Positions 13,510 to 55,762 are shown, numbered from the stretch's first letter. The stretch is DNA of 64,000 nucleotides from an archaeon (GCA_020057295.1 JAGVGF010000006.1:160001-224000); one strand, 5' to 3'. Notes: generated by a model from the sequence alone, not told the origin. A program made the numbers and translations.

Positions 13510-13639
13510 AATATCATCACTTAATCATTAAGGTAAGAGTTTTTTATAAATTTATTGGAATTAGTAATTCTTTGATAGTATTTAGTCCTCTGTAATAATC
13601 AAAAGATTTATATATAAATTCTTTACTAAATTGAGTATC

Positions 13640-14218
13640 ATGACAGTATTCGGTGATAGTATAAACTTTTTAGTAAAGCTTGGCATCTACGATATAGTCT
13701 TGCCGTTCCTCTTAGTTTTTGTACTTGTTTTTGCACTTTTAGAGAAAACTAAAGCACTAGGAACTGAAAGAGCTCGTGACGACAAAGGCGAATATCAAGA
13801 ATATACTAAGAAGAACCTTAATGCTATGGTAGCGTTTGTTACTGGATTCTTTGTAGTAGCAAGTTCTCAACTTGTTTCCGTAATCAATAGAAGTTTATCA
13901 CAAATATTCTTATTATTATTACTTGTTATATGTTTCTTGATGGTTGCAGGAGCATTACATCAACAGACTAAGGAAGGATTCTTCCTTGATCCTAAGAAAC
14001 ACGGATTTTATTACGGTGCATTTATGGTTATAGTATTTGGAGGCATCATTGCTATATTCCTTAATTCTTTAGGTTGGCTTGATCTTGTGTATAACTTTTT
14101 AAAGGATAACTGGAATACAGATTATATTGCGTCAGTAATATTTATAATTATTATAGTAGGATTTATGGCTTGGATTATGAGTGATCCTAAACCTAAACCC
14201 GAAGAGAAAAAAGATTAA
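13640..14218 (+). CDS. Multi-pass membrane protein, paralog 1 of tandem trio
   Basis: GIYDIVLPFLLVFVLVFALLEKTK...KNLNAMVAFV. ATG at 13640 is preferred over TTG at 13631. Confidence 0.75.
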   Translation: MTVFGDSINFLVKLGIYDIVLPFLLVFVLVFALLEKTKALGTERARDDKGEYQEYTKKNLNAMVAFVTGFFVVASSQLVSVINRSLSQIFLLLLLVICFLMVAGALHQQTKEGFFLDPKKHGFYYGAFMVIVFGGIIAIFLNSLGWLDLVYNFLKDNWNTDYIASVIFIIIIVGFMAWIMSDPKPKPEEKKD

Positions 14219-14229
14219 AAGGTGAAATT

Positions 14230-14880
14230 ATGGCATACTACGGTACTGGTTATTATGGTAGTGGTTCTGGAGGAATTTTTGCTCAAGGAATCTTTAAATT
14301 ACAAGAGATGGGTATTGCAGATGTCATTCTACCATTCATTCTAGTATTCACAATCGTTTTTGCTGTAATGCAGAAGACTAAAATTTTAGGCACAGAGAAA
14401 GTTGGTACTGAGGATAAACCTCGAAAGAATTTTAACGCAGTTATTGCTTTAGTTATGGCTCTTGCTGTAATCATACCTCACGTTACTGGAACATATCCTA
14501 GTCCTGAATCTGATGTTGTAAACATTATGAATCAGGCTTTGCCTAATGTTTCTGTTGTATTAATTGCTGTAATTATGATGTTACTTATCATAGGAGTATT
14601 TGGTGGCGATGTGAGTATTGCTAAGACTTCACTTGCTGGATGGGCTGTTGTGTTCTCTGTACTCGCTACAATATTTATCTTCGGTAGTGCTGCTAATTGG
14701 TACAACTTGCCGAATTGGCTTTACTTCCTAAACGATTCAGACACTCAAGCACTTATAGTGATTATACTCGTATTTGCAATACTGATATGGTTCATTACTA
14801 AAGAAGATAAACCTAAAGATCCTAAAAAATACGGTGGTATTGAAGATCTTGGTAGAATCATGGGTTACAAAAAGGATTAA
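14230..14880 (+). CDS. Multi-pass membrane protein, paralog 2 of tandem trio
   Basis: GIADVILPFILVFTIVFAVMQKTKILG...KNFNAVIALV. GGTGA RBS. Confidence 0.78.
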   Translation: MAYYGTGYYGSGSGGIFAQGIFKLQEMGIADVILPFILVFTIVFAVMQKTKILGTEKVGTEDKPRKNFNAVIALVMALAVIIPHVTGTYPSPESDVVNIMNQALPNVSVVLIAVIMMLLIIGVFGGDVSIAKTSLAGWAVVFSVLATIFIFGSAANWYNLPNWLYFLNDSDTQALIVIILVFAILIWFITKEDKPKDPKKYGGIEDLGRIMGYKKD

Positions 14881-14882
14881 TC

Positions 14883-15464
14883 ATGGCAACATTTATTGAT
14901 ATAAGCATTATTAAGAACTTCACAACAATATTTACGTTCTTATTAGTGTTTGTTATAATCTACGGCTTATTAGAAATGTTTAACGTATTTGGTGAAGGCC
15001 GTAAGAGTATTCATGCAATTATTGCTATGGTTATCGCATTCTTAGTCAGTGTATCTAGTGGTGTATTGACTGTTATTCAAACATTCACACCGTGGTTTGT
15101 AATATTAATTTTATTTATATTTTTTATACTTTTTGCTGTTAGAATGTTTGGTGTTAGTGGTGAGAGTATTACTAAGGCATTTCATAACAAGAGCGCAATA
15201 CTTACATGGGTAATAATAATTACTGTACTAATATTATTATTCTCTTTAGGAGCAGGTTTTGGTCAACAAACTTTAGACCAAGGTCAAACAGGCGGTAAAG
15301 TTACTAGTGTTGCTACTGGTAATCAGACTGCGCCAACTGATAGTGGTGATTTTAGTCAGAATTTATATAATACTATCTATCATCCTAAAGTTTTAGGATT
15401 AATATTGGTAATGTTGATAGTTGTTGTTTCTATGTTATTATTGACGGATGCTGAAGGACCATAA
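14883..15464 (+). CDS. Multi-pass membrane protein, paralog 3 of tandem trio
   Basis: IFTFLLVFVIIYGLLE...FG...KSIHAIIA. Starts 2 nt after the previous stop. Confidence 0.72.
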   Translation: MATFIDISIIKNFTTIFTFLLVFVIIYGLLEMFNVFGEGRKSIHAIIAMVIAFLVSVSSGVLTVIQTFTPWFVILILFIFFILFAVRMFGVSGESITKAFHNKSAILTWVIIITVLILLFSLGAGFGQQTLDQGQTGGKVTSVATGNQTAPTDSGDFSQNLYNTIYHPKVLGLILVMLIVVVSMLLLTDAEGP

Positions 15465-15468
15465 GAAT

Positions 15469-17571
15469 TTATTTTTGTAAAATCATTTTTATTGTTTTTA
15501 CGTATGGTTTTTCTGTTCCTGTTGTTGGATTTACTGTCATTCTTAATAAATATAATCCGCTGCTTAATCCATTCCCATTTATTTGTTCTGTATAAGTTCC
15601 ACTTGATTGTATTCCTTCATCTATTTCTCTAACTAATTGTCCTAATGTATTATATAATCCTAATTTTACATGAGCATTCTGCTTTAGAGAGTATTGAATA
15701 TTTGTTGTTGGATTAAATGGATTAGGATAATTTTGTAATAATTCATAATTTTTAGGAACTGACTCGTCTATTCTAACACTTGTTAATGTTTTTGCTGTTA
15801 CTATCTTGCTAGTGTTTGATGCTACAACAGTATCTATGCCATCAGTAACTTTTCCAGTAAAAATATATGTTGTATTAGGTTCCAAAATATTTGATGGAAT
15901 TGTTAATTTTGTATTTTTTGTAATTATTACTGAATCTATTTTTCCACCCTTCATATTAATAATATATCTTAGCGTATCTGTATCTACTGAAGGATTCCAA
16001 TCTCTAACAACATCTACATTTGCATACTTTACAGTATCTGATACTTCCTTGAAACTCCAAGCAGATGGAGGAATATTTGCTGTTGTGAATGTTACAACGT
16101 TGGTTGCGTTTACTGTATCTATTCCATCTGTAACTTTTCCTTCGAGAGTGTATGAAGTGTTTGGTTTTAATAATGTTGAATCTATTAATACATTTCCAGA
16201 ATTATTTTTTACTTTGAAAATGAGATCTAAATCCGGACCAAAAACTCTTATTAGTCCTTTTAATGAATCACCGTCTGCATCTAAGGAAAAATTTGGTGTA
16301 TATATCACAGGTAGTTTCCCATTGGTAAATGTTGCTTTTGAATTATTTAATGGACTTATAATTGTAATAGGTTCTGGTGAAGTGTTCTTTGTTGTAAATT
16401 TTACAAATGGCGACCATGCACCTGCTCCTTTTGATCCAATGGTTCTTGTTCTTGTATAATATGTTGTATGTGCGTTACCGTTGAATGTTTTTGTTGTTCT
16501 GTCCATTGTTGAATCTTCTAATAATGGAACTGTTGTCGTATCCTTGAAGATTTGTAAATGATATCTTACTGCATTACTGTCTTTACTAGCAATAATATCT
16601 ACTAATTTATCTACAGTAGAATTATTAGATGGACTTGTTATAAGTCCAGAATTTGGAATTACAGGTTCGACAAAATCAGTCATATTGCCCATGAATAAAT
16701 CTTGTTGTTTGTCTCTCTTACGGAAATGTTGATCTAATGTTAAAGCAAGATAACTTCCATCAATTGGTTGCCATCCAGGATTAGACTGAACCGAAGGATC
16801 TGAATTAGATGGAACGGGTAAAGGAGGTATAGCAGGCCATCCATTATATGCCTTAACTATTTCGTGATTTATTCTCCAAATTTGAGAAGCTCCAATTTGA
16901 GAAGAGCCTTTGAATACTATACGATTTATATTATAATTTATACTACTAAAATTAGTTCCGGCATTCATAAATATCGTAAATGTTGTATCAGGGCTAGAAT
17001 TACTTGAAACAAAATTATACAAAGAATATCCTGTACTTCTCTCCATCGTATCTTTTGCAGCAATAATAGCCAAACTGTCTAGTCTTACTAATGTACTATC
17101 ACTTGAAAAATTTTCTATTCTTGTATTTACAGGATTTATTTGAGACCAGTGCGGAGGATCTTTATTTTTTGATACGTCATAAAGTCTCATCCACCATTCT
17201 GACACTAATGAATCTTTTCCCCACGGTCCCTCTCTTATTGTTTTTGGTGTTGCAAGCCATATTGTTGTATCGTTTGTAATATTCATATTTTGTTCAAATG
17301 TTTTATAATCTTGATGAGATAGTTTTACTGAATGTGTTCCTCCAGGTATTTTTGTAAAAGAAGAGTTACCATTCACGTCAGAAGATCTTGTATATTGTCC
17401 CTTATCTAAAGAAACAACGGCACCAGAAATAGGATTTCCTGCTCCATGTTTTAACTCTGTAACTTTAAAATTTACGTTAAATGTTTGTGCGAGAACGTTT
17501 GTTGTAAACATAGCTCCAGCTAATAAAGATAATCCTAATATCTTCGTCTTACGAACAATATTTTCAAGCAT
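15469..17571 (-). CDS. Secreted protein: carboxypeptidase-regulatory-like domain, FN3/Ig-like domains, C-terminal T9SS type A (Por) sorting-like domain
   Basis: Signal peptide ending VLA-Q; PISGAVV..SDVNG..F..IPGGTH.V..S..DY; C-terminus P.NYELLQNYPNPFNPTTNIQYSL....HVKL..YN.LGQLV...G..LSSG.Y...KMIL.K. Confidence 0.85.
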   Translation of the reverse strand: MLENIVRKTKILGLSLLAGAMFTTNVLAQTFNVNFKVTELKHGAGNPISGAVVSLDKGQYTRSSDVNGNSSFTKIPGGTHSVKLSHQDYKTFEQNMNITNDTTIWLATPKTIREGPWGKDSLVSEWWMRLYDVSKNKDPPHWSQINPVNTRIENFSSDSTLVRLDSLAIIAAKDTMERSTGYSLYNFVSSNSSPDTTFTIFMNAGTNFSSINYNINRIVFKGSSQIGASQIWRINHEIVKAYNGWPAIPPLPVPSNSDPSVQSNPGWQPIDGSYLALTLDQHFRKRDKQQDLFMGNMTDFVEPVIPNSGLITSPSNNSTVDKLVDIIASKDSNAVRYHLQIFKDTTTVPLLEDSTMDRTTKTFNGNAHTTYYTRTRTIGSKGAGAWSPFVKFTTKNTSPEPITIISPLNNSKATFTNGKLPVIYTPNFSLDADGDSLKGLIRVFGPDLDLIFKVKNNSGNVLIDSTLLKPNTSYTLEGKVTDGIDTVNATNVVTFTTANIPPSAWSFKEVSDTVKYANVDVVRDWNPSVDTDTLRYIINMKGGKIDSVIITKNTKLTIPSNILEPNTTYIFTGKVTDGIDTVVASNTSKIVTAKTLTSVRIDESVPKNYELLQNYPNPFNPTTNIQYSLKQNAHVKLGLYNTLGQLVREIDEGIQSSGTYTEQINGNGLSSGLYLLRMTVNPTTGTEKPYVKTIKMILQK

Positions 17572-17592
17572 AATATACCATAGAATAATAGG

Positions 17593-17608
17593 TTTATAAA
17601 TTTTACGC
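17593..17608 (-). promoter_or_regulatory. Archaeal BRE/TATA promoter for the 700-aa T9SS-CTD gene (probably leaderless)
   Basis: Minus strand GCGTAAAATTTATAAA. The TTTATAAA box is separated from the ATG at 17571 by 21 nt. Confidence 0.6.
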
Positions 17609-17633
17609 TTGTTACCACCTAACAGTTACTAAT

Positions 17634-20600
17634 TTACTTAACACTTAAGTTAAATTGATCATCATATATTTCGTAATTATTATACCAACTATTTAGACCA
17701 CAATAATTAGTAAATTTACTCTTACAAAGAGCATTAGTTCCACATAATTGAGTGGCAATTGATGGAAAATTTTGAAGAGGATATAAACAATCCGTCTTAA
17801 ATTGCCATTTATTAGTTGTTTTATTAAAAATTGCAGGTTGATCGCATTTCTTAGTCAAATTATTAGATGCAACAAGATTATTCATAATAGACCTATAACC
17901 TTCATCGCACTTCACAGGAGAAGGTTTGCATGAATCGGAAGACGAATAATAATCATATTTTTTATCAGGACACGCAGGGTAAATACCGCCTTTATCGCCT
18001 TGACCTTTCAAAGTTAATACTTCCTTAATTTTTTTGAATTCTCCTCCAGATATCGCAACGTACTTGTTTACACCTAAATCATAAGTCATTGTCTGTCCCT
18101 CTTTCAAACAAACAGGACATCCTGTAACATTATCTTGAACAATAGTTCCATTGACACATTCCGCATGCAATTTCATTTTAGAAGACACACCATGTTCAAT
18201 ATTACATAAAGCAGCATTAATTTTGTTTGGATCTAAAATAACGGAGTCAGTCGTAGTTCTCTCACGATCAATACCATCTGCATCTATTATTTTGGTAGTA
18301 TCAGGGAATTGATGTATTCCACAATCTGGATCCGCTGATGTTCCATTAACCTTTGCACATATAGGTGTACTCGAGAAATCATCAGGACAGAAACCATCCA
18401 TATTAATACTACAAGCTCTATCTTCAACTGTAGCATCAGGATAAACTATAGCCAAATCAGAAGGAGGACTACAAGTAACTTGTAAAACAAAAGATCTTTC
18501 TGATGATGCTTTTATCCATTCTTTACCATTCCATCTTGCACAATATCCATACTCTCCCTCAACAGAATACTTTACATTTGCGACACCTGTGGATTTACAG
18601 TATTTTAATAATGATTTTTGATCGGCACAAATATTTAATTGTGCTGTAGATCTAGTAGTTTTGTTGTCAATAGCAGACACCTTAGGGCTTACAGCAGTTA
18701 CAGCTCCAGAACCAACACAAGTAACAGAATTAATATCAGCACCGTATTTTAGATTTTGTCCTCCGACATAACTCAAACAAGGAGTTCCTACACCAATTTT
18801 TACTCCAACAATTGCATCACCATAACCTAAATAACTACAGAATTGTTTTAACGTGAAAGAATCACCACAAACAGGATATCTATTATTATCACCATTATAC
18901 AATTTAAGTAAATCGTTGCTCGTAGAATAAGTTTGTTTACTATTAGATAAAGGTCTTCCAATTTTATAATTATTACATATAACTCCTCCTGCACCTAACT
19001 GATTAACTAGGAGAGAAGGCCATTCTGTAAATCCTTTAAGAACAGCACCATATTGATTGTATGTAGTAGCTGCATTATTACAAGTATCAATTATTATTTT
19101 ATAATTTCCTGAACTACCATACCATATATTACTTCTAAAAACACCCGATCCTGGTAATCCATCACGGAATGCAGCCTGCATAGCATATAATCTGTTGGCA
19201 ACAAAATGTTCTGTAGTCTCTCCAGGACTTAATGAAACGGAATAAGTTATCGAACCTCTCTGATTACCATCAACAGTTGCTCCATCTTTTACTCTGTGAT
19301 TACCACCAGCAAACATTTCACCATCATAACTAATTTTGAAATCTGGATCATCAACGCTACCAATATCAACTTGTAAATTCGATACAAGATCTTGACATGT
19401 TGTTGCTGGACCATGATAATCGACAGTTATTCCAATTGCACCATTAGTATCACAAGAATATACAGCTCCATATGCACTGTTAGTAACACCAGGTATTATA
19501 TTACATCTATTACCACCAGTTAATGTTACACCTTCAATTTTACAATCAATTTTTTTACATGCATTACTACACGCATCAGCAAAATCTTCACTATTACCAT
19601 CATCACATTCTTCTGCACCTTGTACTCTTCCATCACCACAACTCTGACAAGTTCCTTGTCCAGTAATACTATTACAATCAGAACTACATGTTGGTACACC
19701 TATGTAAGCACCATAATAATTAGTACCAGCAGCACTCTTTCCACCATAAAATTCTGAACAAGTGTGTGATCCAGGATTTGTTCCGTCACAAGTCTCTGTT
19801 CCTTCAACAGCATTATTACCACAATAAGAACATGTTCCTCGAGTAATTGCACAAGTACTACTACAAGAAGGAGTTCCATGATTCATATCACGATCAACAT
19901 TATTATACACGATACTATATTCAGAGCAAGTATGCGAACCAATATTTGTTTTATCACATTCTTCAGTACCTTCAATAATATTATTCATACATAAAGAACA
20001 AGTTCCTTTCGTTAAAGCACAATTAGTACACGATGGAGTTCCATGATTCAAATTCCAGTAAGCATTGTTAAACAATGTAGTGAATTCATCACAACTATAA
20101 CCACCAAGATTTGAACCATCACACTGCTCACTTCCTTCAACAATATTATTCATACACAAAGAACATGATCCTAAAGTTATTTGACAATTACCATTACATC
20201 CTGGAGTTCCATGATTCAAATTCCAGTCAGCATTGTTAAACAATGTAGTAAAATAGTCACATGAATATCCTTCATCTAAATTAATCACTGAACCATCGCA
20301 TTGTTCATAAACTCCATAAGCATTAGGCCATTGAAGAGAACCATCGCCGCATCGTGTACAGTCTGGATCAGATATCCCGTGACTTGCACATATTCCTGAC
20401 GATATTCCGCAACTTGATCCATAATTATTCGGACATATTCCATCACTGGCTCCGCAAGTATAAATATTATAATTTCCAGAAGAAACATCATATAATTTTA
20501 CACCATAACCGTGTGTTCCAGAATAACATGTTCCAGAACATATTGGAGATATTGATCCTGAGCAAACATAAGATGTAGTCCAGCTACCACATTCATATAC

Positions 20601-21497
20601 ACATCCAGTTCCAGAGCCGTTCCATAATGCAAATTGTTCTAAAGAGTTTAAAGGTTTTGCATCGAAAGATTCTCCATTAATAAATTCGCGATTATTCACC
20701 GAAATATCAGATAAAGTTATTTTTGGACAAATCCAGGAACTGCAATATTGTGAAGTCTGACAGACACCGGTACAATAATAATTATCTGGAGCATCGCAAG
20801 TCATTTCTGCATTTGTGTTACATGAACCTTCACAATAACAATTTCTATTATTTAATTCTCCTCCTTGTTTACTATCACACATAGTTGTTGGTGAACTATA
20901 TGTTACAGCGTAAACTTTATTATTGCCTGGAGTGTTATCACAAATGTAGTTGTAACATCCACCATTAGCTACGACATACATTCCGTCTTTGTAAGACACT
21001 GTACCATAAGAACTACATGCAATGTTTTGGCATTGACCATTTACACAATTCTGATTTGCTCCACACACATTTCCACACGATCCACAATTAGTAACAGTAT
21101 TTATTGGAGTCTCACACCCATCAGATGCTATTTGATTACAATTTTTTTGTGTATTACGCGCACAAGGTTCGCATCCGCTAGAATCATCACAGTAAGAATT
21201 TATGCCACAATTTTGACTAAAATAACACGATACGCCACCAGTCCACCTAGCAGTGTTATATCCTGTACTCGTACAACCAAGAAAATCAATAGGATTACAA
21301 CTAGGATAAGAAACGGGATTTTTAAACACACATGCTCCACCAGTCCATGTACACAAACTATTCATTAAACATCCTGAATATGATTCGTGTGGACAAGGTG
21401 GACGCGCATAAACAATGTTTGATAATATTATTACTAAAAATATTAGTAGAACAATGGTGATTCCTTTCCAAATATAACTTCGCCTACTCATCCTCAT
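17634..21497 (-). CDS. Large Cys-rich secreted/surface protein with myxobacterial-type (DUF4215-like) CG[DN]G..E.CD repeats
   Basis: N-terminal signal/TM; CGDG...EQCDG, CMNN..EG.E.CD, CGDGRVQGAEECDDGN, DGCETP...NCGSCGNVC and DG.CP...DPDC motifs. Confidence 0.8.
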   Translation of the reverse strand: MRMSRRSYIWKGITIVLLIFLVIILSNIVYARPPCPHESYSGCLMNSLCTWTGGACVFKNPVSYPSCNPIDFLGCTSTGYNTARWTGGVSCYFSQNCGINSYCDDSSGCEPCARNTQKNCNQIASDGCETPINTVTNCGSCGNVCGANQNCVNGQCQNIACSSYGTVSYKDGMYVVANGGCYNYICDNTPGNNKVYAVTYSSPTTMCDSKQGGELNNRNCYCEGSCNTNAEMTCDAPDNYYCTGVCQTSQYCSSWICPKITLSDISVNNREFINGESFDAKPLNSLEQFALWNGSGTGCVYECGSWTTSYVCSGSISPICSGTCYSGTHGYGVKLYDVSSGNYNIYTCGASDGICPNNYGSSCGISSGICASHGISDPDCTRCGDGSLQWPNAYGVYEQCDGSVINLDEGYSCDYFTTLFNNADWNLNHGTPGCNGNCQITLGSCSLCMNNIVEGSEQCDGSNLGGYSCDEFTTLFNNAYWNLNHGTPSCTNCALTKGTCSLCMNNIIEGTEECDKTNIGSHTCSEYSIVYNNVDRDMNHGTPSCSSTCAITRGTCSYCGNNAVEGTETCDGTNPGSHTCSEFYGGKSAAGTNYYGAYIGVPTCSSDCNSITGQGTCQSCGDGRVQGAEECDDGNSEDFADACSNACKKIDCKIEGVTLTGGNRCNIIPGVTNSAYGAVYSCDTNGAIGITVDYHGPATTCQDLVSNLQVDIGSVDDPDFKISYDGEMFAGGNHRVKDGATVDGNQRGSITYSVSLSPGETTEHFVANRLYAMQAAFRDGLPGSGVFRSNIWYGSSGNYKIIIDTCNNAATTYNQYGAVLKGFTEWPSLLVNQLGAGGVICNNYKIGRPLSNSKQTYSTSNDLLKLYNGDNNRYPVCGDSFTLKQFCSYLGYGDAIVGVKIGVGTPCLSYVGGQNLKYGADINSVTCVGSGAVTAVSPKVSAIDNKTTRSTAQLNICADQKSLLKYCKSTGVANVKYSVEGEYGYCARWNGKEWIKASSERSFVLQVTCSPPSDLAIVYPDATVEDRACSINMDGFCPDDFSSTPICAKVNGTSADPDCGIHQFPDTTKIIDADGIDRERTTTDSVILDPNKINAALCNIEHGVSSKMKLHAECVNGTIVQDNVTGCPVCLKEGQTMTYDLGVNKYVAISGGEFKKIKEVLTLKGQGDKGGIYPACPDKKYDYYSSSDSCKPSPVKCDEGYRSIMNNLVASNNLTKKCDQPAIFNKTTNKWQFKTDCLYPLQNFPSIATQLCGTNALCKSKFTNYCGLNSWYNNYEIYDDQFNLSVK
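20034..20249. repeat. Intragenic direct repeat, 48 bp x2, period 168 nt
   Basis: tggagttccatgattcaaattccagt[a/c]agcattgttaaacaatgtagt at 20034-20081 and 20202-20249, one mismatch. Encodes TTLFNNA[D/Y]WNLNHGTP. Confidence 0.85.
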
Positions 21498-21641
21498 TTT
21501 TTACCTTTTAACTCACCTTTTAGTAATACACGACAATGTTATTTAAATATATTGCGTTTTTTAAACTTAAATTTAGATAATATAAAAACTAAGAATAGTA
21601 TCTGTTAATATATCTATTATGAAAATATATAATAAGAAAAA

Positions 21642-23441
21642 TTATTTTTTCAAAATCATCTTTATGGTTTTCATGTATGGTTTTTCTGTTCCTGTTGTCG
21701 GATTTGCAATCATTCTCAATAAATATACACCGCTACTTAATCCGTTTCCATCTACTTGTTCTGTATACATTCCAGAATTTTGTATTCCTTTATCTACTTC
21801 TCTGACTAATTGTCCTAATGTGTTATATAATCCTAATGTTACATGAGCATTCTGCTTTAATGAATATCTAACATTTGTCGTCGGATTAAAAGGATTAGGA
21901 GAGTTTTGTGAAAGTTCGAACGATTTAGTATTATTTTTTAATATTAATTCTATATTGTTTGAATATTTAAATTGTCCATCATTATCTATTTGTTTTAATC
22001 TATATTCTACTGTATCAGAAATATTTGTTTCTACAAATTCATATGTTCTTGATACGGATGAACTTCCTGAACCTTGAACAAATCCTACTCTTTTCCAATC
22101 TTTAATTTTTCTATCAACATTTTTTTCTACATCAAAGCCATAATTATTTACTTCTGTTGCAGTAGTCCATTTAAGACGAGCAATATTATCAATATATGAT
22201 CCTATAAACGATACTAATTCTACTGGAAGAGGAGTTGAATTAGTAGTATTTGACCATTCACTAACTCCTGCTTCGTTTTTTGCTCTAACTCTTACAAAAT
22301 ATTTTGTATTTGGAGAAGCAGTAAAATTTTTATCTGTTCTTCTAAGTAAAGAATCATTTACTGAAAAAGTTGTGAATGATGAATCTGTGGATATTTGTAA
22401 ATGATATGTTTCCGTACCAAATGAATTTGTCCATTTAACAAGCATTTCTAAAGGGACTCCTGTTGAATTATTAACTGGTTGTGTTATAGATACTGAAGAT
22501 GGAATTGTTGGACTAACATAATCTTCTATATTTAATAAGAATGCGTTTTGTTCTCCTCTAACTTTTGCCTTATGATGTCTCTCAGCAGTTTTTGTTAATA
22601 TATTATCATCTAATGTAAATTCTGGAGGATGTCCGTTCGGATCCATATTACTTGAAAATGTTGTTACATAACTTTTATCATCTCCAAATCCTGCAACTTC
22701 GTGTTGTAAGATAGGAATTGTTGGACCAGGAGAAACATTTGCACTGATAATATTTATTAAACCATTTCCATCATCGAATATAGTAGTTTGATTGTTATAT
22801 GGACTGTTAAAAGTTATTAGCACTCCACCATTATCTACTACATCCGCTGAATCTGTTGTTAATATATATCTTTTTTCTTTCAATATAAATTCTATGCTTG
22901 ATGTGTCGGAATCTTGCCATTGCGTTAATCCATTTCCTAATGCTTTTCTAAATATTAACGAATCGTATGATGTTGCGTTGCTTAAGAATGTTTTTTTAGG
23001 GTAATCTGCAAATAGAGGGTCTTTATTTTTTGGAGCACTACTTGAATATAGATCTATCATTTTCTCAGCTGTAATTATTCCTGTTCCTTTAGTTACAGTT
23101 TGTGTTGTTTCTGGAAGCGTAAAATTTAATGTCTTATTGCTTGTAATATTTACTGCAGTTTCAAAAAAATCCATATATCCTTTTTTACTGATTCTTACAT
23201 TATGTGTTCCTGATTGTATTCCTGCAATGGAGTAATTTCCGTTAACATCTGTTTCTGCAGTAATGGCACTTGAATCCACATATAATTTTACATTTTCTAT
23301 TGGAACTCCTGTTGAATCTTTTAATGAAGTAATTTTTCCTTGTAAAGTGTAGTTTTGAGCTGAAGCTAATCCTGATACAAATAAAACAGGTAAAACTATT
23401 TTACGGAATAATCTACCTACAATATTATCGAGTTTTAGCAT
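21642..23441 (-). CDS. Secreted protein: carboxypeptidase-regulatory-like domain, FN3, PLPVEL Ig module, C-terminal T9SS type A sorting-like domain
   Basis: Signal peptide ending ASA-Q; TDVNGNYSI.GI..GTH.V..SK.GY; PLPVELVSF...LKWTTATEVNNYGFDVEK...YRLKQIDNDG.FKYS; FELSQNSPNPFNPTT...KMILKK. Confidence 0.87.
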   Translation of the reverse strand: MLKLDNIVGRLFRKIVLPVLFVSGLASAQNYTLQGKITSLKDSTGVPIENVKLYVDSSAITAETDVNGNYSIAGIQSGTHNVRISKKGYMDFFETAVNITSNKTLNFTLPETTQTVTKGTGIITAEKMIDLYSSSAPKNKDPLFADYPKKTFLSNATSYDSLIFRKALGNGLTQWQDSDTSSIEFILKEKRYILTTDSADVVDNGGVLITFNSPYNNQTTIFDDGNGLINIISANVSPGPTIPILQHEVAGFGDDKSYVTTFSSNMDPNGHPPEFTLDDNILTKTAERHHKAKVRGEQNAFLLNIEDYVSPTIPSSVSITQPVNNSTGVPLEMLVKWTNSFGTETYHLQISTDSSFTTFSVNDSLLRRTDKNFTASPNTKYFVRVRAKNEAGVSEWSNTTNSTPLPVELVSFIGSYIDNIARLKWTTATEVNNYGFDVEKNVDRKIKDWKRVGFVQGSGSSSVSRTYEFVETNISDTVEYRLKQIDNDGQFKYSNNIELILKNNTKSFELSQNSPNPFNPTTNVRYSLKQNAHVTLGLYNTLGQLVREVDKGIQNSGMYTEQVDGNGLSSGVYLLRMIANPTTGTEKPYMKTIKMILKK

Positions 23442-23462: not shown

Positions 23463-23501
23463 TTTATAAAGTTTTTGGTTGTAGTCACTCAATAGTGACT
23501 A
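23463..23501 (-). promoter_or_regulatory. TATA box for the 599-aa T9SS-CTD gene plus adjacent 8-bp inverted repeat
   Basis: TTTATAAA at 23463-23470, 21 nt from the ATG at 23441. TAGTCACT-caat-AGTGACTA at 23482-23501. Confidence 0.55.
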
Positions 23502-23529: not shown

Positions 23530-26500
23530 CTAGTTTACAACAATATTTTTCTTTCCATAAATAAGATATTTTCCACTCGTACTATTAAACAAATTAGAAA
23601 TTCCACAATAATAACCTATTTTATCAGTCACAACAATATCAGGGAATGTACAATTAGTAATAATACTATTTACAATAAGATCATATTTCGGATCTTCAAC
23701 AATGTTACCAGGAATTACAGCTGCAGTAGGATTTATTAAACAATTGCGTACACATTCATTAGATAAAGTAACTTTTTTCTTATCTAAACCACATTTTTTA
23801 GCACATTTTTTAACAGTATCAGCACTAGAACCATTAACTCTCTCATCACCAGTTATATTCACAAATAAAGGTAACTTAAATAACGCGTTAAGCAATTTAG
23901 AACAATTATTTCCTGTATTGAAATCCGTACCTACATCACAACTATTTAAAGCCGGAAAACAATATCCGTCTGTCAAACCATATCTGAATCCTTGAGGACA
24001 AAGAGTTTTATTAGCTGAACATATAACTGTATTTCCATCGTAATTAGTTACAGCAGGATTATCCAAATTTAAACTTGCTACTAGACATGCAGCTTGACCA
24101 CTAGAATTTTTATACACACAATTAGACGCGCCAGCGCATATCTTATGAACAGGAGGAACTGGTAATGCACATGATTGACCTAAAACAGTTAGTCCAAGTT
24201 TATCACGAACTTCTGCGCATGTCATCCACGTATGATGTGCAGAATCTATAGTGAAATTTACACCAGAGTTTGCAACAGGAATATTTTGTGTATGTGGATA
24301 GAATTTATCATCAACAGTATTCAAAGTTTTTGCCGCGTTTGTAAAGAATGCTGCTCCGCCAGGAGGAATTACACCCATTAATTTTCCTGCACATTTAGCA
24401 GGAATTGTACCATTTAAAGTATAATTAAATTCTATAGAAGTACTTCCTGCGCCAATACTTAAATCTCCCATTTCGCTACTATTTAATCCAATCACAGCTC
24501 CTTGACCGCCAATGTTACATGCACCATCAGTACTATTAATATCAACTTGTGCAAATCTTGCAGCAGAACAATCACCTGTAAAATTAATTACTACACGAAC
24601 TTTATCTTTTGGAGCACACACTCCCCTATCACAACCAGTACCAGGATACACTGCAACATTTGTAATAGAACATAATTGACAATATACACATCCAGGATTA
24701 CTACTATCACAACTCTCACCATATTGAGGTTGAGTAATTCCATCACCACATCGTGCAGCATCTTGAGTCCATTTCGGCCAATCTATAGTGCATGTATCAA
24801 GACATGGTGCATGACCAGGATAAGGCTGTCCAGCTTTTACGACATGAGTTACACCGAGTGTATCGCATATTTCTCGACCATTATTATTATGATCTCCGTA
24901 TATTTTATAATAATTAGTTCCGCCAGCATTAAGTCCTCGTTGAAAATCATTTTCGGTTAAATCATAAAATGTCCTATCAAGATTAGAAATATCATATGTT
25001 TGAGTTTCATCATTACACCAACTATCATATTTAAAATCACAATGTAACGTAGCCATAAAATAATTAGGATCAGTATCACTAAGAGGAACAACATAAAAAT
25101 CAGGATAATCTGGAACCCACCATCTATTAGACCAAAATTTTGAATGGTTTAAATATCCCCAAAAGCCAGTAAACTGTCTCCATTCTATGTGTGCTTGATA
25201 CCCGCTTTCACAATACGTTTCAGTGCCATCACAAAGAGTTCCATTTTGTGCAAGCCAAGGAAAAGGACCTCCATTAAGATTAGTAGCTCCTTCAGAAATA
25301 GTCTGTGCAATAGCATCTCCACATCTAGTCCTAAGAGTACAATTAGGCGAGCATCCACTACCATCTTGACCAATCATGTTGTCAGGATCATACTCGTCAT
25401 AAGGATCATTTGCTCTTCTTGAGCATGTTACTGATGTTGTAATATTCTTACTATTATTTGTTATCCATTGTAATCCATTCCATAATTTACATGATGCTAC
25501 AGAACCTGAATGAGTCGCAGCAGCTTCATTTGAAGTTGCATAATTATTATCTATACAATATTTTACTCTGCTTGGTTTATCATCACATATAACAACGCGA
25601 GATCCGTCTGTTGCATTTGGAGAAGGATATGTTTTACTTCCACTAGTAGTATTATAATCGCATTGTTCGCCTGCATCTAATTTTCCATCACCACATATTG
25701 GACCAATAATAGTTATATTTGAACATGTAGTATTACAATAGGAACAAACAGTATTAGGTGCAGCAACACATGCTGTGTTAGTATTAAATCCTCCTAAATC
25801 ACATTGTTCTGTAATACTATTATGATTAGGAGTTTGTTTCATACCATCACCACAGATTGACCAATGACATTTGTAACAATCAGCAGTATCAGTAGGACCA
25901 ACATCACATTGTTCTCCATATATTGTATCTACAAAATAATTTCCACAAGAGCCATTAGTTAAAGTTATACCTTTAGTTAGTGTTGTAGAATAATAATTAG
26001 ATTGTTTGTTTAAAGGAATTGGTAAACCACTATAAGCTTCTGAAGCGACTAGTGTTAAAGTTTGTCCATTACATCCAACGGGTATTGAAGGAATTTTATC
26101 GCTAAGTAAATTTGTAGGAGAAGTAAAACTACTAAGATTAGGATTGAAGATTAATAATATCATTTTAGAAATAACATTAGTAGAATCTGGAGTGTTATAA
26201 TTCATAACACAAGAACCGTATGCAGATGCGAAATCTATCTGTACACTTTTTGCTTTAGAACAATCTCCAGTATAATTTACAGTAATATTTAATTTATTAT
26301 CAGAATTACATGCACTATTAACAATATCACATCCATTACCTGGTTTAATATCTATACCAGTAATTTTGCAAGTTCCACACGCTCCATCGCCCATACAGAA
26401 TGTATTTGCTGGACATTGTGCATCACTAGTACACGCAACACATTGCCGGAATATGCATGTAGGCTTCAAAGAATTTTTAACTACACAATCAGTATTAGTA

Positions 26501-29500
26501 TCACACTCTATATTATATAAGTATATAGGATTTATCTGTGTACCAGCATAATACGCAAGAATGGTTGGAGGAAGAGTTGCTCCAATACCAAAATATTCCG
26601 TGTCTATTTTTTCAGAAACATCTTTAGAAGCTAGAACTTTTTTGGAAGGATATGAACCAAGTAAATCATCTTCAGTAATGTCTAATAATCTTTTTGATAA
26701 GTCATTAACAGGTAAAGATTTTACAACAACTCCACCATCATATCTAAATGATATTCCTGTAATATTATTTATTACTTTATTACCACAAATCAAAGGAAGT
26801 GTTGGTACTGTATAAGTAAAAGACGTAGTAGTTATAAGAGGAGTATTTAATAATGTATTAGATCCTGTCATGCCTTTCATCGAGCCACTACTAAATTGTA
26901 TCTTACAAGAATTATCAGAACTTGCAGCATCCACTTGTATTGCTTCTGTTAATGCACAATTGCCAGTATATCTAACATTAACAGTCCAAGTAGTACCAAC
27001 ATTACATGCATTAGCACTACTGCTACCACATGATGAAGGAGTAATTGATGCACTTAATATTGTACAATCTTTAATTTGACAAGTATTAGTACATCCGACA
27101 CTAGTATCTGGAATATTATTGGAGCAAGTAACAGGATATACATAAGCGGCAATCAGAGTATTCCATCCCCCAACATATTTGATACATGGCGTTCCAAAAG
27201 TTATTGGTGTTGCGCCAACAGTTGCAGTATTAAATCCATTCTCCAAACAGAATCTTGTCAATGAAGTAGTATCTCCACATACACCATAATAGTTAGCACC
27301 ATTATTATTTGAACGTTGCATAGATGCAGTAGTACTAAACGTAACAGATGATGGAGGTATATAATCACATTGCTCGCCAGAATCTGTAATAGTATTACCA
27401 CATGTTGTACATCGTGAAACATCATATCCACTACAACCAGTATTACATCCTAATGTTCCTATCCATGTTCTACCATCATTCTTTACGCCCGTACAAGTCA
27501 TAGAATTCAGCGTTGTACCATCACATGTTTCTGAAAATTCTTTAACATTATTTCCACAATATCCACATTTACTATAATCAAAATTACAAGAATTAGTACA
27601 TGAAACAACTCCATTATTGCAGTTCACAGCATTTCCGTTAGCATTAGAACATGAATTGTATTGACTGCAAACTTTTCCATTAATATCAGAACCGTCACAT
27701 ATTTCAGCAGGTTCTCTTATACCATTACTACAATAACCACAACCAGCAGAATTTAGTTTACATCCACCACAAATTAAATTTCCGTTGTTGGCCGGAACAT
27801 CAGCACCATTTCCTTGTGGATCGCTATACACATTATAGTTTGCACAAGTTTTTCCATAAGCAGTTGAACCGTCACATTCATCTCCTCTATTTGGATCGAT
27901 TATATTATCACCACAAATACTCGGAACCCATGAACATCCTAAAGTAGTACATTTAGCTCCACGATACGCGCTACAATCAATTGTACCATCACAATAATTT
28001 GGATTAATAGCAGGTTCAACAGTGTAGCAATTGAGAGGTGCATCTGCACTACAATCATATCCGGACCATGAAAGAGAAGGTATTTCAAATTCGCCACAAC
28101 TTCTAGTTGATGGACCTTTACATATATATTCTAATTTACAAGAACTACATCCATCACCGACAACAGAATTTCCATCATCACATTCTTCTCCATCTAAAAC
28201 GTTAACTACACCATCACCACAAACATTTGGTTGCCAACCACAACCAGCAGCAGTACAAGCAGAATTAGACTGCAAAGAAGAATCTTTACACTCAATTATA
28301 CCGCCACAACTATGATAACATTCACTCCAAAACTGATCAGCATAGCAACCAGCAGGAGCAGTATCACATTCAGTCTCACAATTATCAACAAAATAACCAT
28401 TACAACTTTGAGTTGATGAACCTTTACAAACGTACGTCTTTAAACAACTACTTGAACATCCATCGTAATTGTTTAGATTACCATCATCACACTGTTCTCC
28501 AGCAGCAACATTCATCACACTATCACCACAAACATTTGGTTGCCAAGTACAACCAGCAGCAGTACAAGCAGAATTAGACTGCAAAGAAGAATCCTTACAA
28601 TTAATTGTGCCACCACAAATATTTGGATCATTGCCTGATTCAACAGTAGAGCAATCAGTAGGAGCATTTGCACCACAATCATAACCAGACCATGAAAGAG
28701 AAGGTATTGCAAAAATATCACAACTTCCAGTTGATGAACCTTTACAGACATAATCTAATGCTATACGACAAGTTCCTTGTACAAAAGCTGAACAGTCAGT
28801 TCTACATCCAGGAGTGCCTATATATTCTGCACCATAAATATTAGCACAAGTGGAACCACTAGTACCATCACAAATTTCAAAACCATTTCGTATATTATCA
28901 CCACAATGTTGTGTAGTAGTACATGCATTTAAAGTACAAGAAGCAGAACAACTTTTAGAACCGATGTATCCATTAGTAATACAAATAGTTCCACTACCAT
29001 CACATTGCTCATTACCATTTCTTACGTTATCACCACAAGATTCAGAAGGAACACAAGTTCCTGACCAAGAACAAGATCCAGTACATGATTCAGTTCCCGC
29101 ATAACCTGCTGCAGTAGTACATGCTCGAGTATTGCCATCGCATTGCTCAGGACCAATCGTTATTGAATCTCCGCAATAATATGGAGTAACACAATTATTC
29201 CAGCTACACCAAAGGTCGCAAGATTTAGAGCCAGGATAACCGTTAACAAAACATGTTTCAGTATTACTATCACATTGTTCATTACCATTTCTTACGTTAT
29301 CTCCACAAGATTCATAAGAATAACATTGATCATACCCGTTACACAAACCACCACATCGTTGAGTTCCAGAATAACCTGCTACGGTTGAACAAGATACAGT
29401 ATCACCATCACATAATTCACGACCATTCCTCCAGCCGTCACCGCACATTTCTGTAGAATAACAATTAGAATAGCCTGTGCACAAGAAACAACTTTGAGTG

Positions 29501-29811
29501 CCAGTATAGCCGTTAAAATCTGTACAAGATTGAGAACCGCCATCGCAAGTTTCATAACCATTCTTTTTACCATCACCACAAGATTCACAAAATCCACAAC
29601 CAGCCCACCGACAACTAGAACAATAATTTAGGCCATTATATCCCCCACCACAGGAACAAGAATTAGGCCAATTTTGATCACACTGCTCTCCAGGATCCAA
29701 AATAGTATCACCACAATATGCGGAAACATTAGAAGAAATAATAATTAATAGAAAAGTGCTTAATATAAAAAATATTGTTAGTGAAAATAACGTTTTATTC
29801 TTCATCATCAT
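23530..29811 (-). CDS. Very large Cys-rich secreted/surface protein with many DUF4215-like repeats
   Basis: Signal peptide ending VSA-Y; many CG[DN]x..E.CD units (e.g. GEQCDDGNLNNYDGCSSSC, GEECDDGNSVVGDGCSSC); three copies of a C.I....P..C...C......V.[YF]TG.C....Q[VI]D module. Confidence 0.82.
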   Translation of the reverse strand: MMMKNKTLFSLTIFFILSTFLLIIISSNVSAYCGDTILDPGEQCDQNWPNSCSCGGGYNGLNYCSSCRWAGCGFCESCGDGKKNGYETCDGGSQSCTDFNGYTGTQSCFLCTGYSNCYSTEMCGDGWRNGRELCDGDTVSCSTVAGYSGTQRCGGLCNGYDQCYSYESCGDNVRNGNEQCDSNTETCFVNGYPGSKSCDLWCSWNNCVTPYYCGDSITIGPEQCDGNTRACTTAAGYAGTESCTGSCSWSGTCVPSESCGDNVRNGNEQCDGSGTICITNGYIGSKSCSASCTLNACTTTQHCGDNIRNGFEICDGTSGSTCANIYGAEYIGTPGCRTDCSAFVQGTCRIALDYVCKGSSTGSCDIFAIPSLSWSGYDCGANAPTDCSTVESGNDPNICGGTINCKDSSLQSNSACTAAGCTWQPNVCGDSVMNVAAGEQCDDGNLNNYDGCSSSCLKTYVCKGSSTQSCNGYFVDNCETECDTAPAGCYADQFWSECYHSCGGIIECKDSSLQSNSACTAAGCGWQPNVCGDGVVNVLDGEECDDGNSVVGDGCSSCKLEYICKGPSTRSCGEFEIPSLSWSGYDCSADAPLNCYTVEPAINPNYCDGTIDCSAYRGAKCTTLGCSWVPSICGDNIIDPNRGDECDGSTAYGKTCANYNVYSDPQGNGADVPANNGNLICGGCKLNSAGCGYCSNGIREPAEICDGSDINGKVCSQYNSCSNANGNAVNCNNGVVSCTNSCNFDYSKCGYCGNNVKEFSETCDGTTLNSMTCTGVKNDGRTWIGTLGCNTGCSGYDVSRCTTCGNTITDSGEQCDYIPPSSVTFSTTASMQRSNNNGANYYGVCGDTTSLTRFCLENGFNTATVGATPITFGTPCIKYVGGWNTLIAAYVYPVTCSNNIPDTSVGCTNTCQIKDCTILSASITPSSCGSSSANACNVGTTWTVNVRYTGNCALTEAIQVDAASSDNSCKIQFSSGSMKGMTGSNTLLNTPLITTTSFTYTVPTLPLICGNKVINNITGISFRYDGGVVVKSLPVNDLSKRLLDITEDDLLGSYPSKKVLASKDVSEKIDTEYFGIGATLPPTILAYYAGTQINPIYLYNIECDTNTDCVVKNSLKPTCIFRQCVACTSDAQCPANTFCMGDGACGTCKITGIDIKPGNGCDIVNSACNSDNKLNITVNYTGDCSKAKSVQIDFASAYGSCVMNYNTPDSTNVISKMILLIFNPNLSSFTSPTNLLSDKIPSIPVGCNGQTLTLVASEAYSGLPIPLNKQSNYYSTTLTKGITLTNGSCGNYFVDTIYGEQCDVGPTDTADCYKCHWSICGDGMKQTPNHNSITEQCDLGGFNTNTACVAAPNTVCSYCNTTCSNITIIGPICGDGKLDAGEQCDYNTTSGSKTYPSPNATDGSRVVICDDKPSRVKYCIDNNYATSNEAAATHSGSVASCKLWNGLQWITNNSKNITTSVTCSRRANDPYDEYDPDNMIGQDGSGCSPNCTLRTRCGDAIAQTISEGATNLNGGPFPWLAQNGTLCDGTETYCESGYQAHIEWRQFTGFWGYLNHSKFWSNRWWVPDYPDFYVVPLSDTDPNYFMATLHCDFKYDSWCNDETQTYDISNLDRTFYDLTENDFQRGLNAGGTNYYKIYGDHNNNGREICDTLGVTHVVKAGQPYPGHAPCLDTCTIDWPKWTQDAARCGDGITQPQYGESCDSSNPGCVYCQLCSITNVAVYPGTGCDRGVCAPKDKVRVVINFTGDCSAARFAQVDINSTDGACNIGGQGAVIGLNSSEMGDLSIGAGSTSIEFNYTLNGTIPAKCAGKLMGVIPPGGAAFFTNAAKTLNTVDDKFYPHTQNIPVANSGVNFTIDSAHHTWMTCAEVRDKLGLTVLGQSCALPVPPVHKICAGASNCVYKNSSGQAACLVASLNLDNPAVTNYDGNTVICSANKTLCPQGFRYGLTDGYCFPALNSCDVGTDFNTGNNCSKLLNALFKLPLFVNITGDERVNGSSADTVKKCAKKCGLDKKKVTLSNECVRNCLINPTAAVIPGNIVEDPKYDLIVNSIITNCTFPDIVVTDKIGYYCGISNLFNSTSGKYLIYGKKNIVVN
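28213..28593. repeat. Intragenic direct repeat, about 72 bp x2, period 309 nt
   Basis: atcaccacaaacatttggttgccaa..acaaccagcagcagtacaagcagaattagactgcaaagaagaatc at 28213-28284 and 28522-28593. Encodes DSSLQSNSACTAAGC.WQPNVCGD. Confidence 0.85.
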
Positions 29812-30469: not shown

Positions 30470-30649
30470 AACACCCTCTTTATATTATTAACGCACAATT
30501 ACTATATATAATATGCATTTATACCAATAACATGTTTATAAACTTTACGCTCAACTATATATAGTATATTATTACAACATTATCCGAGTTCATCGTAACA
30601 TTTTTAAACAATATATGTTTTCGTGAAATATTATTGTGGGGTAAATTTT

Positions 30650-32044
30650 ATGGGTTTGTTTGATAACATTATCAATAATCTGCCAGAAGTATCACGTCCA
30701 AGTCAGAAGAAGTTGCCTTTTAAGGACAAGCTTAAATGGACTCTGATTATATTGATGATATTCTTTGTACTTGGAATGATTCCATTATTTGGTCTTGGTT
30801 CTAATGCATTACAACAGTTTGAATTCTTATCTATTATATTAGGTGCAAGTTTCGGATCCATAATATCACTTGGTATCGGTCCAATAGTTACTGCATCTAT
30901 CGTATTACAATTATTGAATGGTTCTGGACTTTGGAAATTTGATATGACCACACATGAAGGTAAGCAAAGATTTCAAGGATTTCAGAAATTATTCTCTATA
31001 TTTTTCATCATATTAGAAGCTGGCGTATATGTATTCATGGGAGGTCTTTCACCTAATGCAGCATACATCGGTACTTCATTATATTTCCAGTTAGAATTAG
31101 TTTTAGTATTCCAATTAATCCTTGGCGGAATAATGATTATGTTTATGGACGAGATTGTTACTAAATGGGGTTTTGGTTCTGGTATCTCATTATTTATTGC
31201 GGCAGGTGTTGCTCAACAAGTATTTATCAGAGCATTTTCATTTCTTCCGAATCCATCTAGTCCAGGAACGGTTACTGGAGCGATTCCTAACTTATTTATT
31301 AGTTTAGCAGGAGGAGATCCTACTACTGCGATGTTAATGATTGCATCCATTGTAGCAACTATAGTTGTATTCCTACTTGCAGTTTATGTTCAAGCAATGA
31401 AAGTAGAAATACCACTTAGTTTTGGTAGAGTAAGAGGACATGGAATAAGATGGCCATTAAATTTCTTATACACATCTAACATTCCAGTAATTTTAGTCGC
31501 TGCATTAATGGCTAATGTACAATTATTTGCAACATTATTACAAAAATGGGGTCATCCAATACTTGGAACATTTAGTGGTAGCTCTCCAACATCAGGATTC
31601 GTATTATGGATTTATGGTGGAGATGTTGTCGGAAAACTTATTAAAGGATCATTTGTACCAGCAGATTTATTTCATGCATTAGTATATATATTATTCATGG
31701 TTATTGGTTCAGTAGTATTCAGTATATTCTGGGTTCAGTCAGCAGGTATGGATTCTAGAAGTCAAGCTAAACAGATAATGTCTTCAGGATTACAAATTCC
31801 AGGATTTAGACGAGATGAAAGAGTATTAGAAAGAGTTCTAGATAGATATATTTGGCCATTGACAATAATGGGTGCAATTAGTGTAGGATTTTTAGCAGCT
31901 CTTGCAGATTTAAGCGGAGCATTATCTAGAGGAACAGGAATATTATTAACAGTAATGATTATATACCAATTATATGAGAATATTGCTCGTGAACACATGA
32001 TGGATATGAATCCAATGATGAGAAAGTTCATGGGAAGTAAATAA
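30650..32044 (+). CDS. secY: Preprotein translocase SecY (archaeal Sec61alpha)
   Basis: LPEV..P, KLKWT, LGIGPIVTASIVLQLL.G, DE.V.KWG.GSGISLFIAAG, LYTSNIPVIL, IPGFRRD, GTGILL.V.I. ATG at 30650. Confidence 0.96.
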   Translation: MGLFDNIINNLPEVSRPSQKKLPFKDKLKWTLIILMIFFVLGMIPLFGLGSNALQQFEFLSIILGASFGSIISLGIGPIVTASIVLQLLNGSGLWKFDMTTHEGKQRFQGFQKLFSIFFIILEAGVYVFMGGLSPNAAYIGTSLYFQLELVLVFQLILGGIMIMFMDEIVTKWGFGSGISLFIAAGVAQQVFIRAFSFLPNPSSPGTVTGAIPNLFISLAGGDPTTAMLMIASIVATIVVFLLAVYVQAMKVEIPLSFGRVRGHGIRWPLNFLYTSNIPVILVAALMANVQLFATLLQKWGHPILGTFSGSSPTSGFVLWIYGGDVVGKLIKGSFVPADLFHALVYILFMVIGSVVFSIFWVQSAGMDSRSQAKQIMSSGLQIPGFRRDERVLERVLDRYIWPLTIMGAISVGFLAALADLSGALSRGTGILLTVMIIYQLYENIAREHMMDMNPMMRKFMGSK

Positions 32045-54675: not shown

Positions 54676-54676
54676 G

Positions 54677-55714: not shown

Positions 55715-55762
55715 AGATATAATAAAGATAAAACAAAATCTGAAAAGTAATCTGGAAAAAAT

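Follow-up and report, generated by a model that had tools for sequence, protein, structure and literature searches.

Why should two proteins encoded among archaeal genes end in a domain that belongs to the cargo of a bacterial outer-membrane secretion system? The question is raised by a stretch of 64,000 nucleotides (nt) from an archaeon (GCA_020057295.1 JAGVGF010000006.1:160001-224000), hereafter the window, in which a gene for a 700-amino-acid (aa) protein (15469..17571, minus strand) and one for a 599-aa protein (21642..23441, minus strand) each encode a type IX secretion system (T9SS) kind of C-terminal domain (CTD). To our knowledge, the T9SS and the C-terminal signal that goes with it are regarded as exclusive to bacteria of the Fibrobacteres-Chlorobi-Bacteroidetes (FCB) group. 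We consider it probable, though with room for doubt, that both proteins are FCB-derived exoproteins exported by Sec, and that the tail would now serve as a conserved beta-sandwich module rather than as a secretion signal. Throughout, G000 denotes the genome that contains the window and C2-C5 its contigs, and the other G, P and L numbers denote other genomes, proteins and loci.

An earlier, sequence-only reading of the window had assigned both tails to the T9SS type and proposed a profile search, which we ran and which agreed. The CTD of the 700-aa protein (residues 607-700; 15472..15753, minus) scored 37.4 bits with PF18962 (Por_Secre_tail, residues 615-688) and 32.6 bits with TIGR04183, and that of the 599-aa protein (residues 506-599; 21645..21926, minus) scored 30.6 bits (residues 515-586) and 28.7 bits, over curated cut-offs of 27 for PF18962 and 23 for TIGR04183. 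FlgD_ig (PF13860), the other model proposed, behaved differently: both window tails missed its cut-off of 27 (24.1 and 20.9 bits), and the matches above it came from internal copies of the domain in two relatives, G016 and G032. In all five tailed proteins of G000 the CTD ends the chain, with zero residues beyond the domain, and the last residue is Lys. When the alignment of homologs was used as a query, the best solved sequences were T9SS CTDs from translocon complexes (8glj_D, E 0.0018; 8glk_D, E 0.003), and FlgD chains were weaker in the same search of the PDB (E 0.16).

For the fold, alignment-based AlphaFold2 was applied to residues 396-599 of the 599-aa protein (204 aa) and gave two beta-sandwiches with a mean predicted local distance difference test score (pLDDT) of 88.1; a single-sequence prediction of the whole protein was unusable (pLDDT 31.8). 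The first sandwich is modelled as fibronectin type III (FnIII)-like (VIA Z 10-11, root-mean-square deviation 2.2-2.9 over 83-103 residues) and corresponds to the PLPVELVSF...WTTATEVNNYGF module (residues ~403-503; 21933..22235, minus). This module had been picked out beforehand from the sequence, and it is indeed conserved across a 42-row alignment (the query and 41 homologs); it precedes the CTD in Ignavibacteria and Bacteroidota proteins too. The second sandwich is the CTD, with seven predicted strands (model residues 114-202), which is the fold described for T9SS CTDs in a section of PMC11285876. That section also reports a glycine in the beta3-beta4 loop and a Lys-rich motif at the C-terminus as relevant to T9SS recognition. 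G148, K199 and K204 (model numbering) are near-invariant columns of our alignment, and the window tail keeps them (LGQLV; KTIKMILKK). When Foldseek and VIA were queried with the model of both domains, they returned only generic immunoglobulin (Ig)/FnIII sandwiches, with PorU (6za2) at Foldseek rank 11; such matches to a predicted structure neither support nor exclude a specific relation to the solved CTDs. The window tails are genuine members of the type A family of T9SS CTDs.

The tails sit on multi-domain proteins. The 599-aa protein consists of a predicted signal peptide, CarboxypepD_reg, a region that we call the X domain, Fn3, the FnIII-like PLPVELVSF module and the type A CTD. The order in the 700-aa protein is signal peptide, CarboxypepD_reg-like, X domain, Fn3-like, two repeated Ig-like modules and the type A CTD, with the two repeats of this other module standing where the 599-aa protein has PLPVELVSF. 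The two are distant paralogs (28% identity; 29% over the N-terminal 400 aa, E 2e-31), and CarboxypepD_reg is over the Pfam cut-off in the 599-aa protein (residues 41-109; 23115..23321, minus; PF13620, 42.4 bits, cut-off 32.3) and below it in the 700-aa protein. Judged by eye from the translations, both begin with a predicted Sec signal peptide of 28 residues (17488..17571, minus, cleavage after VLA with Gln at +1 in the 700-aa protein; 23358..23441, minus, cleavage after ASA with Gln at +1 in the 599-aa protein), each with a basic n-region, a hydrophobic core and an AxA-type site before Q29, which is an invariant column among the family members aligned. Gln is predicted to follow the cleavage site in four of the five tailed G000 proteins (VLA/Q, ASA/Q, SNA/Q and VNA/Q; sites by eye) and likewise in a homolog from the Ignavibacteria (ANA/Q; by eye), recalling the 'Q-rule' of Bacteroidetes signal peptidase I substrates as outlined in part of PMC5837995. 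The two further G000 genes with this Gln lie at C4:172242-172967 and C5:13771-14499. As for the X domain (residues 105-310; 22512..23129, minus), no Pfam or structural match was obtained and a protein-atlas search gave no usable match. Its invariant residues in the family alignment, His247-Glu248 (in QHEVAG), Ser264 and His289, form a pattern that would suit a metal-dependent hydrolase. The tailed proteins look like adhesin- or hydrolase-like exoproteins.

A search of the genome for T9SS parts had been suggested along with the profile search. SprA, PorV, PorU, GldM, GldN and GldK were not found in G000 by profile search (GldL was not searched), and the sole matches to the PorU model came from the tailed genes themselves, at the CTD end of the model. 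As a side-by-side control, we searched G000 and the closed relative G034 together with four FCB genomes reached via tail homologs (two Ignavibacteriales metagenome-assembled genomes, Pedobacter and Flavisolibacter). The SprA, PorV and PorU models each exceeded their cut-offs in 4/4 FCB controls and 0/2 archaea, and the GldM model in 2/4 controls (both Bacteroidota) and 0/2 archaea. One partial PorV match in G034 was rejected as noise (25.9 bits versus a cut-off of 250). Neither a type B CTD nor an exosortase/archaeosortase (PF09721) was found in G000, the latter model matching its positive control in M. jannaschii. The tails themselves have no C-terminal transmembrane helix or PGF motif, and end instead in a beta-strand with Lys. 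As the archaeon has a single membrane and no outer membrane, export requires no second translocation step; with no T9SS found either, a role for the tail as a secretion signal within its own cell is excluded.

The origin of the proteins was sought among homologs. The C-terminal ~200 residues of the 599-aa protein gave more than 1000 protein matches at 40-47% identity, and the named ones were from Ignavibacteria, Melioribacteraceae or Bacteroidetes. Related loci in species-representative genomes were bacterial in 23/23 cases, and the window tails are 40-53% identical to bacterial tails. The relationship is not confined to this region: residues 15-579 of the 599-aa protein align with a gene from the Ignavibacteria-class genome G434 (32% identity, E 4e-83), which also encodes SprA (1021 bits). 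This homolog has 618 codons with one in-frame TAG (L085 2047-2049) and its first 299 codons are held as a separate protein, so it is either a pseudogene or the product of a sequencing error. The X domain is rare: a search of 1.84 billion proteins yielded 18 representatives at E<=1e-3, one of which (P0264) is named Ignavibacteriales. All 11 X-domain proteins that were scanned had an N-terminal match of the CarboxypepD_reg type, and nine had a C-terminal match to Por_Secre_tail (seven over cut-off). Searching with the X domain only, we recovered one of 151 Ignavibacteria-class genomes (G434) and one of 301 genomes of the archaeal phylum (G000), with a query insensitive enough to miss the 700-aa paralog. 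A tree built from the N-terminal region kept all of its 15 rows. Both rows named as Ignavibacteria shared a clade (100/98) with P0002 and the 599-aa protein, and the 700-aa protein grouped on long branches with a homolog from the congener G007, apart from that clade. Because the 599-aa protein aligns almost end to end with a gene from a T9SS-bearing member of the Ignavibacteria, we conclude that whole multi-domain cargo genes, and not the tail alone, moved between Ignavibacteria-type bacteria and this archaeal genus.

The host is a Woesearchaeota-type archaeon of the DPANN group (named for Diapherotrites, Parvarchaeota, Aenigmarchaeota, Nanoarchaeota and Nanohaloarchaea), as judged from the names of SecY homologs and the size and composition of the genome. 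The best named homologs of its SecY are from Candidatus Woesearchaeota archaeon (71-87% identity), and G000 (1.20 Mb in 6 contigs, 100% complete, 0.46% contaminated) carries archaeal small- and large-subunit rRNA genes on contig C4. That the tailed genes lie among archaeal ones, as had been claimed, is borne out by ABCE1/RLI, Translin, SecY with a Sec61-type plug (30623-32044) and an EMC3/DUF106 insertase. The promoter claim also held: in both tailed genes the word TTTATAAA is followed by exactly 21 nt and then ATG (17593..17600, minus, for the 700-aa gene; 23463..23470, minus, for the 599-aa gene). Among the 700 open reading frames (ORFs) of G000 with an ATG start and a product of 200 aa or more, 27 have TTTATAAA beginning at -29 and 12 have it at -30, and each other position from -60 to -6 accounts for 0-3. 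Given this positional peak, it is not a chance match in an AT-rich genome but a TATA box, and the 21-nt spacing probably implies leaderless or nearly leaderless transcripts. Composition tells the same story, as the five tailed genes have a GC content at third codon positions (GC3) of 0.13-0.20 against a genome median of 0.20 and are fully adapted. In the congener G007, a homolog of the N-terminal part lies beside the same three membrane-protein genes and the same aspartyl-tRNA synthetase (AspRS) as in the window. The relatives in Ignavibacteria and Bacteroidota, the native promoters, the native GC3 and this syntenic homolog together make horizontal acquisition followed by domestication, as first proposed from the sequence, a well supported reading.

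It is scarcely credible that the tailed genes are an artefact of a metagenome-assembled genome, through either contaminating bacterial DNA or a chimeric join. Poorer bins do occur among the relatives rich in matches, and no weight was given to G012 (81% complete, 6% contamination, 8 matches of which 5 are on one contig) or G013 (82% complete, 4% contamination, 15 matches). G000, however, is a complete and nearly uncontaminated assembly of large contigs, its window genes are flanked by archaeal markers, and the closed, single-contig relative G034 has four tail copies. The five tailed ORFs are spread over 4/6 of its contigs (C2, C3 twice, C4 and C5; 124-268 kb), of which C4 also carries the rRNA operon, and all six contigs are uniform in GC (0.306-0.316), in median GC3 (0.19-0.21) and in promoter geometry (a TATA word at -33 to -25 in 23-31% of ORFs). 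Four junctions had been named for checking by read mapping. One sequencing run matched the window, a DNA metagenome with 6% of the sampled words and with contigs of a related strain (no RNA run was among the matches), and 8 of its 278 pieces were listed. A 552-nt contig from this run (15180-15731, 24 differences) bridges the junction at 15464-15469, and a 519-nt contig (23023-23501, 57 differences) includes both the TATA box and the ATG that belong to the 599-aa gene; two further junctions, 17571-17634 and 21497-21642, were unbridged among the eight pieces listed.

The two window tails are alike in a way that the rest of the proteins is not. Their last 94 residues align without gaps at 81% identity and carry the motifs that the earlier reading had quoted, and the DNA is 83% identical over 290 nt (15466-15755 versus 21639-21928). 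Against its closest full-length relative, P0002, the 599-aa protein is 70% identical in the X domain and 32% in the CTD, versus 21% and 81%, respectively, against the co-resident 700-aa protein, with 12% at the position of the PLPVELVSF module. For the tails, nonsynonymous divergence (dN) is 0.12 and synonymous divergence (dS) 0.59, a ratio of about 0.2, and for the N-terminal 381 codons dN is 0.80 and dS 1.12 (near saturation, in an AT-rich genome). As tail dS is well below N-terminal dS, the comparison indicates that the tail was copied between two genes 6 kb apart after their divergence and has since been under purifying selection; the likeness of the tails thus reflects exchange between co-resident genes and not close paralogy of the genes. 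Across the tailed proteins, the tail is the best conserved part. BLAST comparison of 193 tails (36 archaeal, 28 from bacterial loci and 129 metagenomic, the last chosen by similarity to the query) found these ~90-residue sequences all about 40-50% alike, and no transfer count was drawn from it. The next closest tail to the 599/700 pair was from the same genus (G001a, 48%), and the three other G000 tails were no closer to the pair than bacterial tails. We also considered whether small tailed proteins (230-242 aa; G000, G014 and G034) form one family, a claim that was dropped, as they are 13-25% identical outside the tail.

The domain is widespread in the archaeal family and patchy across the phylum. 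In a sample of relatives, Por_Secre_tail matched at E<=1e-3 in 23/61 genomes including G000 (17/61 over cut-off), which breaks down to 10/12 other congeners, 14/18 other genomes of the family and 8/42 from other families of the order. When the phylum was sampled evenly from genomes at least 90% complete, matches over cut-off were found in 29/301 genomes including G000 (19/225 genera), four of them from other orders of the class. Copies need not be terminal. Internal copies occur in three tandem genes of G004 and in one gene each of G016, G032, G049 and G054, in the order signal peptide, CarboxypepD_reg, CTD-like domain and then ~400 residues. They score higher with FlgD_ig than with Por_Secre_tail in G016 (39.2 versus 29.4 bits) and G032 (36.2 versus 30.1 bits). 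Outside the tail, the G016 protein has a weak similarity to the 599-aa protein (E 0.007), which is a hint only. The internal form is probably not an archaeal invention, because the same architecture, followed by an X domain, was also found on a metagenome contig of 48% GC, where it adjoins a dihydrouridine-synthase-like ORF (a single locus in the metagenome scan). The three adjacent genes of G004 (L077 1539-6679) encode ~565 aa each, and in G117 (C35) three matches with identical scores lie at positions 643, 3652 and 6661, 3009 nt apart. One protein of the closed relative G034 (864 aa; L080 3156-5750, minus) joins a Peptidase_C13-like domain (25.2 bits against a cut-off of 22.8), several Ig-like domains of bacterial type and fn3 to a C-terminal Por_Secre_tail (45.1 bits), a gingipain-style cargo layout in an archaeon.

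The reading that we favor runs as follows. The window genes are real chromosomal genes for exoproteins of a small family that the archaeon shares with FCB bacteria of Ignavibacteria type, in which its members are T9SS cargo. Cargo genes with signal peptide, CarboxypepD_reg, X domain, Fn3 and CTD would have entered the archaeal lineage by interdomain transfer, and native TATA promoters would now drive their transcription, probably into leaderless mRNAs. Their products would be exported through SecYEG by way of the N-terminal signal peptides. The CTD would persist, under purifying selection, as a folded beta-sandwich of seven strands, with exchange between neighboring genes, and would cap or stabilize the preceding Ig-like domains, hold the exoprotein to a surface component, or both; a structural or adhesive role seems most likely. 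Several points weigh against this. The T9SS-recognition residues are retained and the tail is strictly C-terminal in 5/5 G000 proteins, both of which are also expected if the signal function still mattered. The negative results for GldN and GldK come without a positive control. No membrane anchor is obvious in any of the five tailed proteins, which may simply be released. The tail dN/dS of about 0.2 is calculated from only 58.7 synonymous sites. Finally, we infer the direction of transfer, from bacteria to archaea, because the modules of the family and the tail are native to T9SS organisms; the tree of the N-terminal region is unrooted, and 11 of its 15 rows carry no taxon label.

Two alternatives keep the tail within the archaeal cell and differ over whether it does anything there. 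By analogy with PGF-CTERM and archaeosortase, it might be a sorting or anchoring signal for an archaeal machinery of its own that positions exoproteins on the surface. Such a signal would explain why diverse N-terminal parts share a tail that is invariably terminal and ends in Lys in all five proteins, why this tail is the best conserved part and has been homogenized between two co-resident genes, and what holds proteins that have no other visible anchor. We nonetheless think it rather unlikely, as neither an exosortase/archaeosortase nor a PorU-type sortase was found in G000, the other three G000 tails are no nearer to the 599/700 pair than bacterial ones, relatives use the domain internally, and recombination alone can explain tail exchange between genes only 6 kb apart. 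The tail might instead be a functionless relic that came with the transferred cargo and has not yet been lost, which would sit well with the failure to find a cognate machinery, with a cargo family so rare (18 representatives in 1.84 billion) and with two of its members, P0262 and P0267, that show no tail (P0267 being the first piece of a stop-interrupted gene). This we hold to be quite unlikely, as a relic should not have a dN/dS of about 0.2 or be more conserved than the rest of its protein, nor be found in 10/12 congeners, 14/18 family genomes and other orders of the class, nor be kept in five copies by a streamlined 1.2-Mb genome.

The remaining alternative places the reader of the tail in another cell. 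The tails might dock on, or be processed by, PorV and PorU, the shuttle and sortase exposed on an Ignavibacteria-type partner, and so tether the archaeon to a bacterial host or prey; if this were true, a DPANN archaeon would be using a bacterial secretion tag for attachment. Past physical proximity is implied by the fact that the tails, and the 599-aa gene as a whole, have their nearest relatives in Ignavibacteria and Bacteroidota, and the retained recognition motifs, the terminal position and the purifying selection are all compatible with such a role. But gene transfer needs a shared habitat only and not symbiosis, the internal copies in relatives cannot serve as such a tag, and the tails are only 40-53% identical to bacterial ones. 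A passage of PMC11285876 reports that even two species of Bacteroidota can have incompatible CTDs. We therefore regard docking on a partner as very improbable and mimicry of a bacterial host's T9SS as unlikely. The sequence-only reading had left two functions side by side, an Ig-like module or engagement of a bacterial partner, and the internal, non-terminal copies in relatives make the former the better fit.

The surroundings of the two genes deserve description in their own right. The tailed genes alternate with genes for giant Cys-rich secreted proteins, one of 1287 aa (17634..21497, minus; myxo_disulf_rpt, 21.2 bits, cut-off 20.8) and one of 2093 aa (23530..29811, minus; 42.2 bits with the same model). 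As these Cys-rich partners, with their myxo_disulf_rpt/DUF4215 repeats, are paralogs of each other (31-35% identity, E 2e-17), the arrangement looks like a duplicated two-gene unit. At 13631-15464 (plus) are three tandem paralogs encoding small multi-pass membrane proteins (195, 216 and 193 aa) without a Pfam family. In G007 the set is syntenic (L084 6508-7766 and 8966-10814), with 65% identity between the third protein and its counterpart and with two more ORFs of similar size upstream. A BRO-N gene (L084 10815-11657, minus; 41.8 bits) separates these membrane-protein genes of G007 from its homolog of the tailed gene. The BRO-N family is typical of viruses and mobile elements. Other genes in the window are bacterial-looking amid archaeal ones, namely AspRS with a GAD domain (9902-11662, minus), a homolog of the Lit-family lipoprotein transacylase (7207-7908, plus) and phosphate acetyltransferase (3697-4710, minus). 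Farther along, an ORF of 1062 aa (33948-37136, plus), without a Pfam match, is followed by one of 5637 aa (37236-54149, plus) and by a dozen ORFs without a Pfam family (54163-63684). Giant surface proteins are common in DPANN genomes.

Taken together, these results describe a clear and well supported interdomain transfer in which a signal domain has been retained. A genuine type A CTD appears to be under purifying selection in archaea without detected machinery, in about a tenth of the sampled DPANN phylum, and thus provides an experiment by nature on the role of a T9SS CTD other than that of a secretion signal. The transfer of whole surface-protein genes between Ignavibacteria and Woesearchaeota is a concrete clue to the neighbors of these uncultured archaea. 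For annotation, the lesson is that a protein given a 'T9SS sorting domain' need not come from a genome with a T9SS. According to part of PMC11285876, archaea lack T9SS genes. Full-text literature, with supplements outside the search, gave no discussion of the domain in archaea beyond one table entry: a table in the Thermoprofundales study (PMC6461988) lists a C25 peptidase from an archaeal metagenome-assembled genome as annotated with a Por_Secre_tail domain. That entry, given without comment in the table and with no treatment of origin, selection or machinery, concerns a different archaeal lineage and a different cargo from those of the window.

Three known systems can be set beside the window tails. 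Like PGF-CTERM, the signal of the archaeosortase system, they are a C-terminal element common to secreted surface proteins that are unrelated in other respects, but the window tail is a folded domain of ~90 residues with no transmembrane helix or PGF motif, and no archaeosortase gene was found in G000. The FlgD Ig-like domain (PF13860) is a related beta-sandwich, and it is the model favored by the internal copies of relatives; the window tails, in contrast, fall below its cut-off and above that of Por_Secre_tail, and are terminal rather than internal. The closest comparison is with the T9SS type A cargo of Ignavibacteria and Bacteroidota. The difference lies in the system, which by definition needs a T9SS encoded in the genome: the window host is a single-membrane archaeon in which SprA, PorV, PorU and GldM were not found, and the genes have archaeal TATA promoters. 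The likeness lies in the proteins, as those of the window have a predicted N-terminal Sec signal peptide, a modular cargo architecture, a full-length homolog in a T9SS-bearing Ignavibacteria genome, and a CTD that is over the same cut-offs, is modelled with seven strands and keeps the loop glycine and the C-terminal motif, so that at the level of the domain these tails are members of the type A CTD family.

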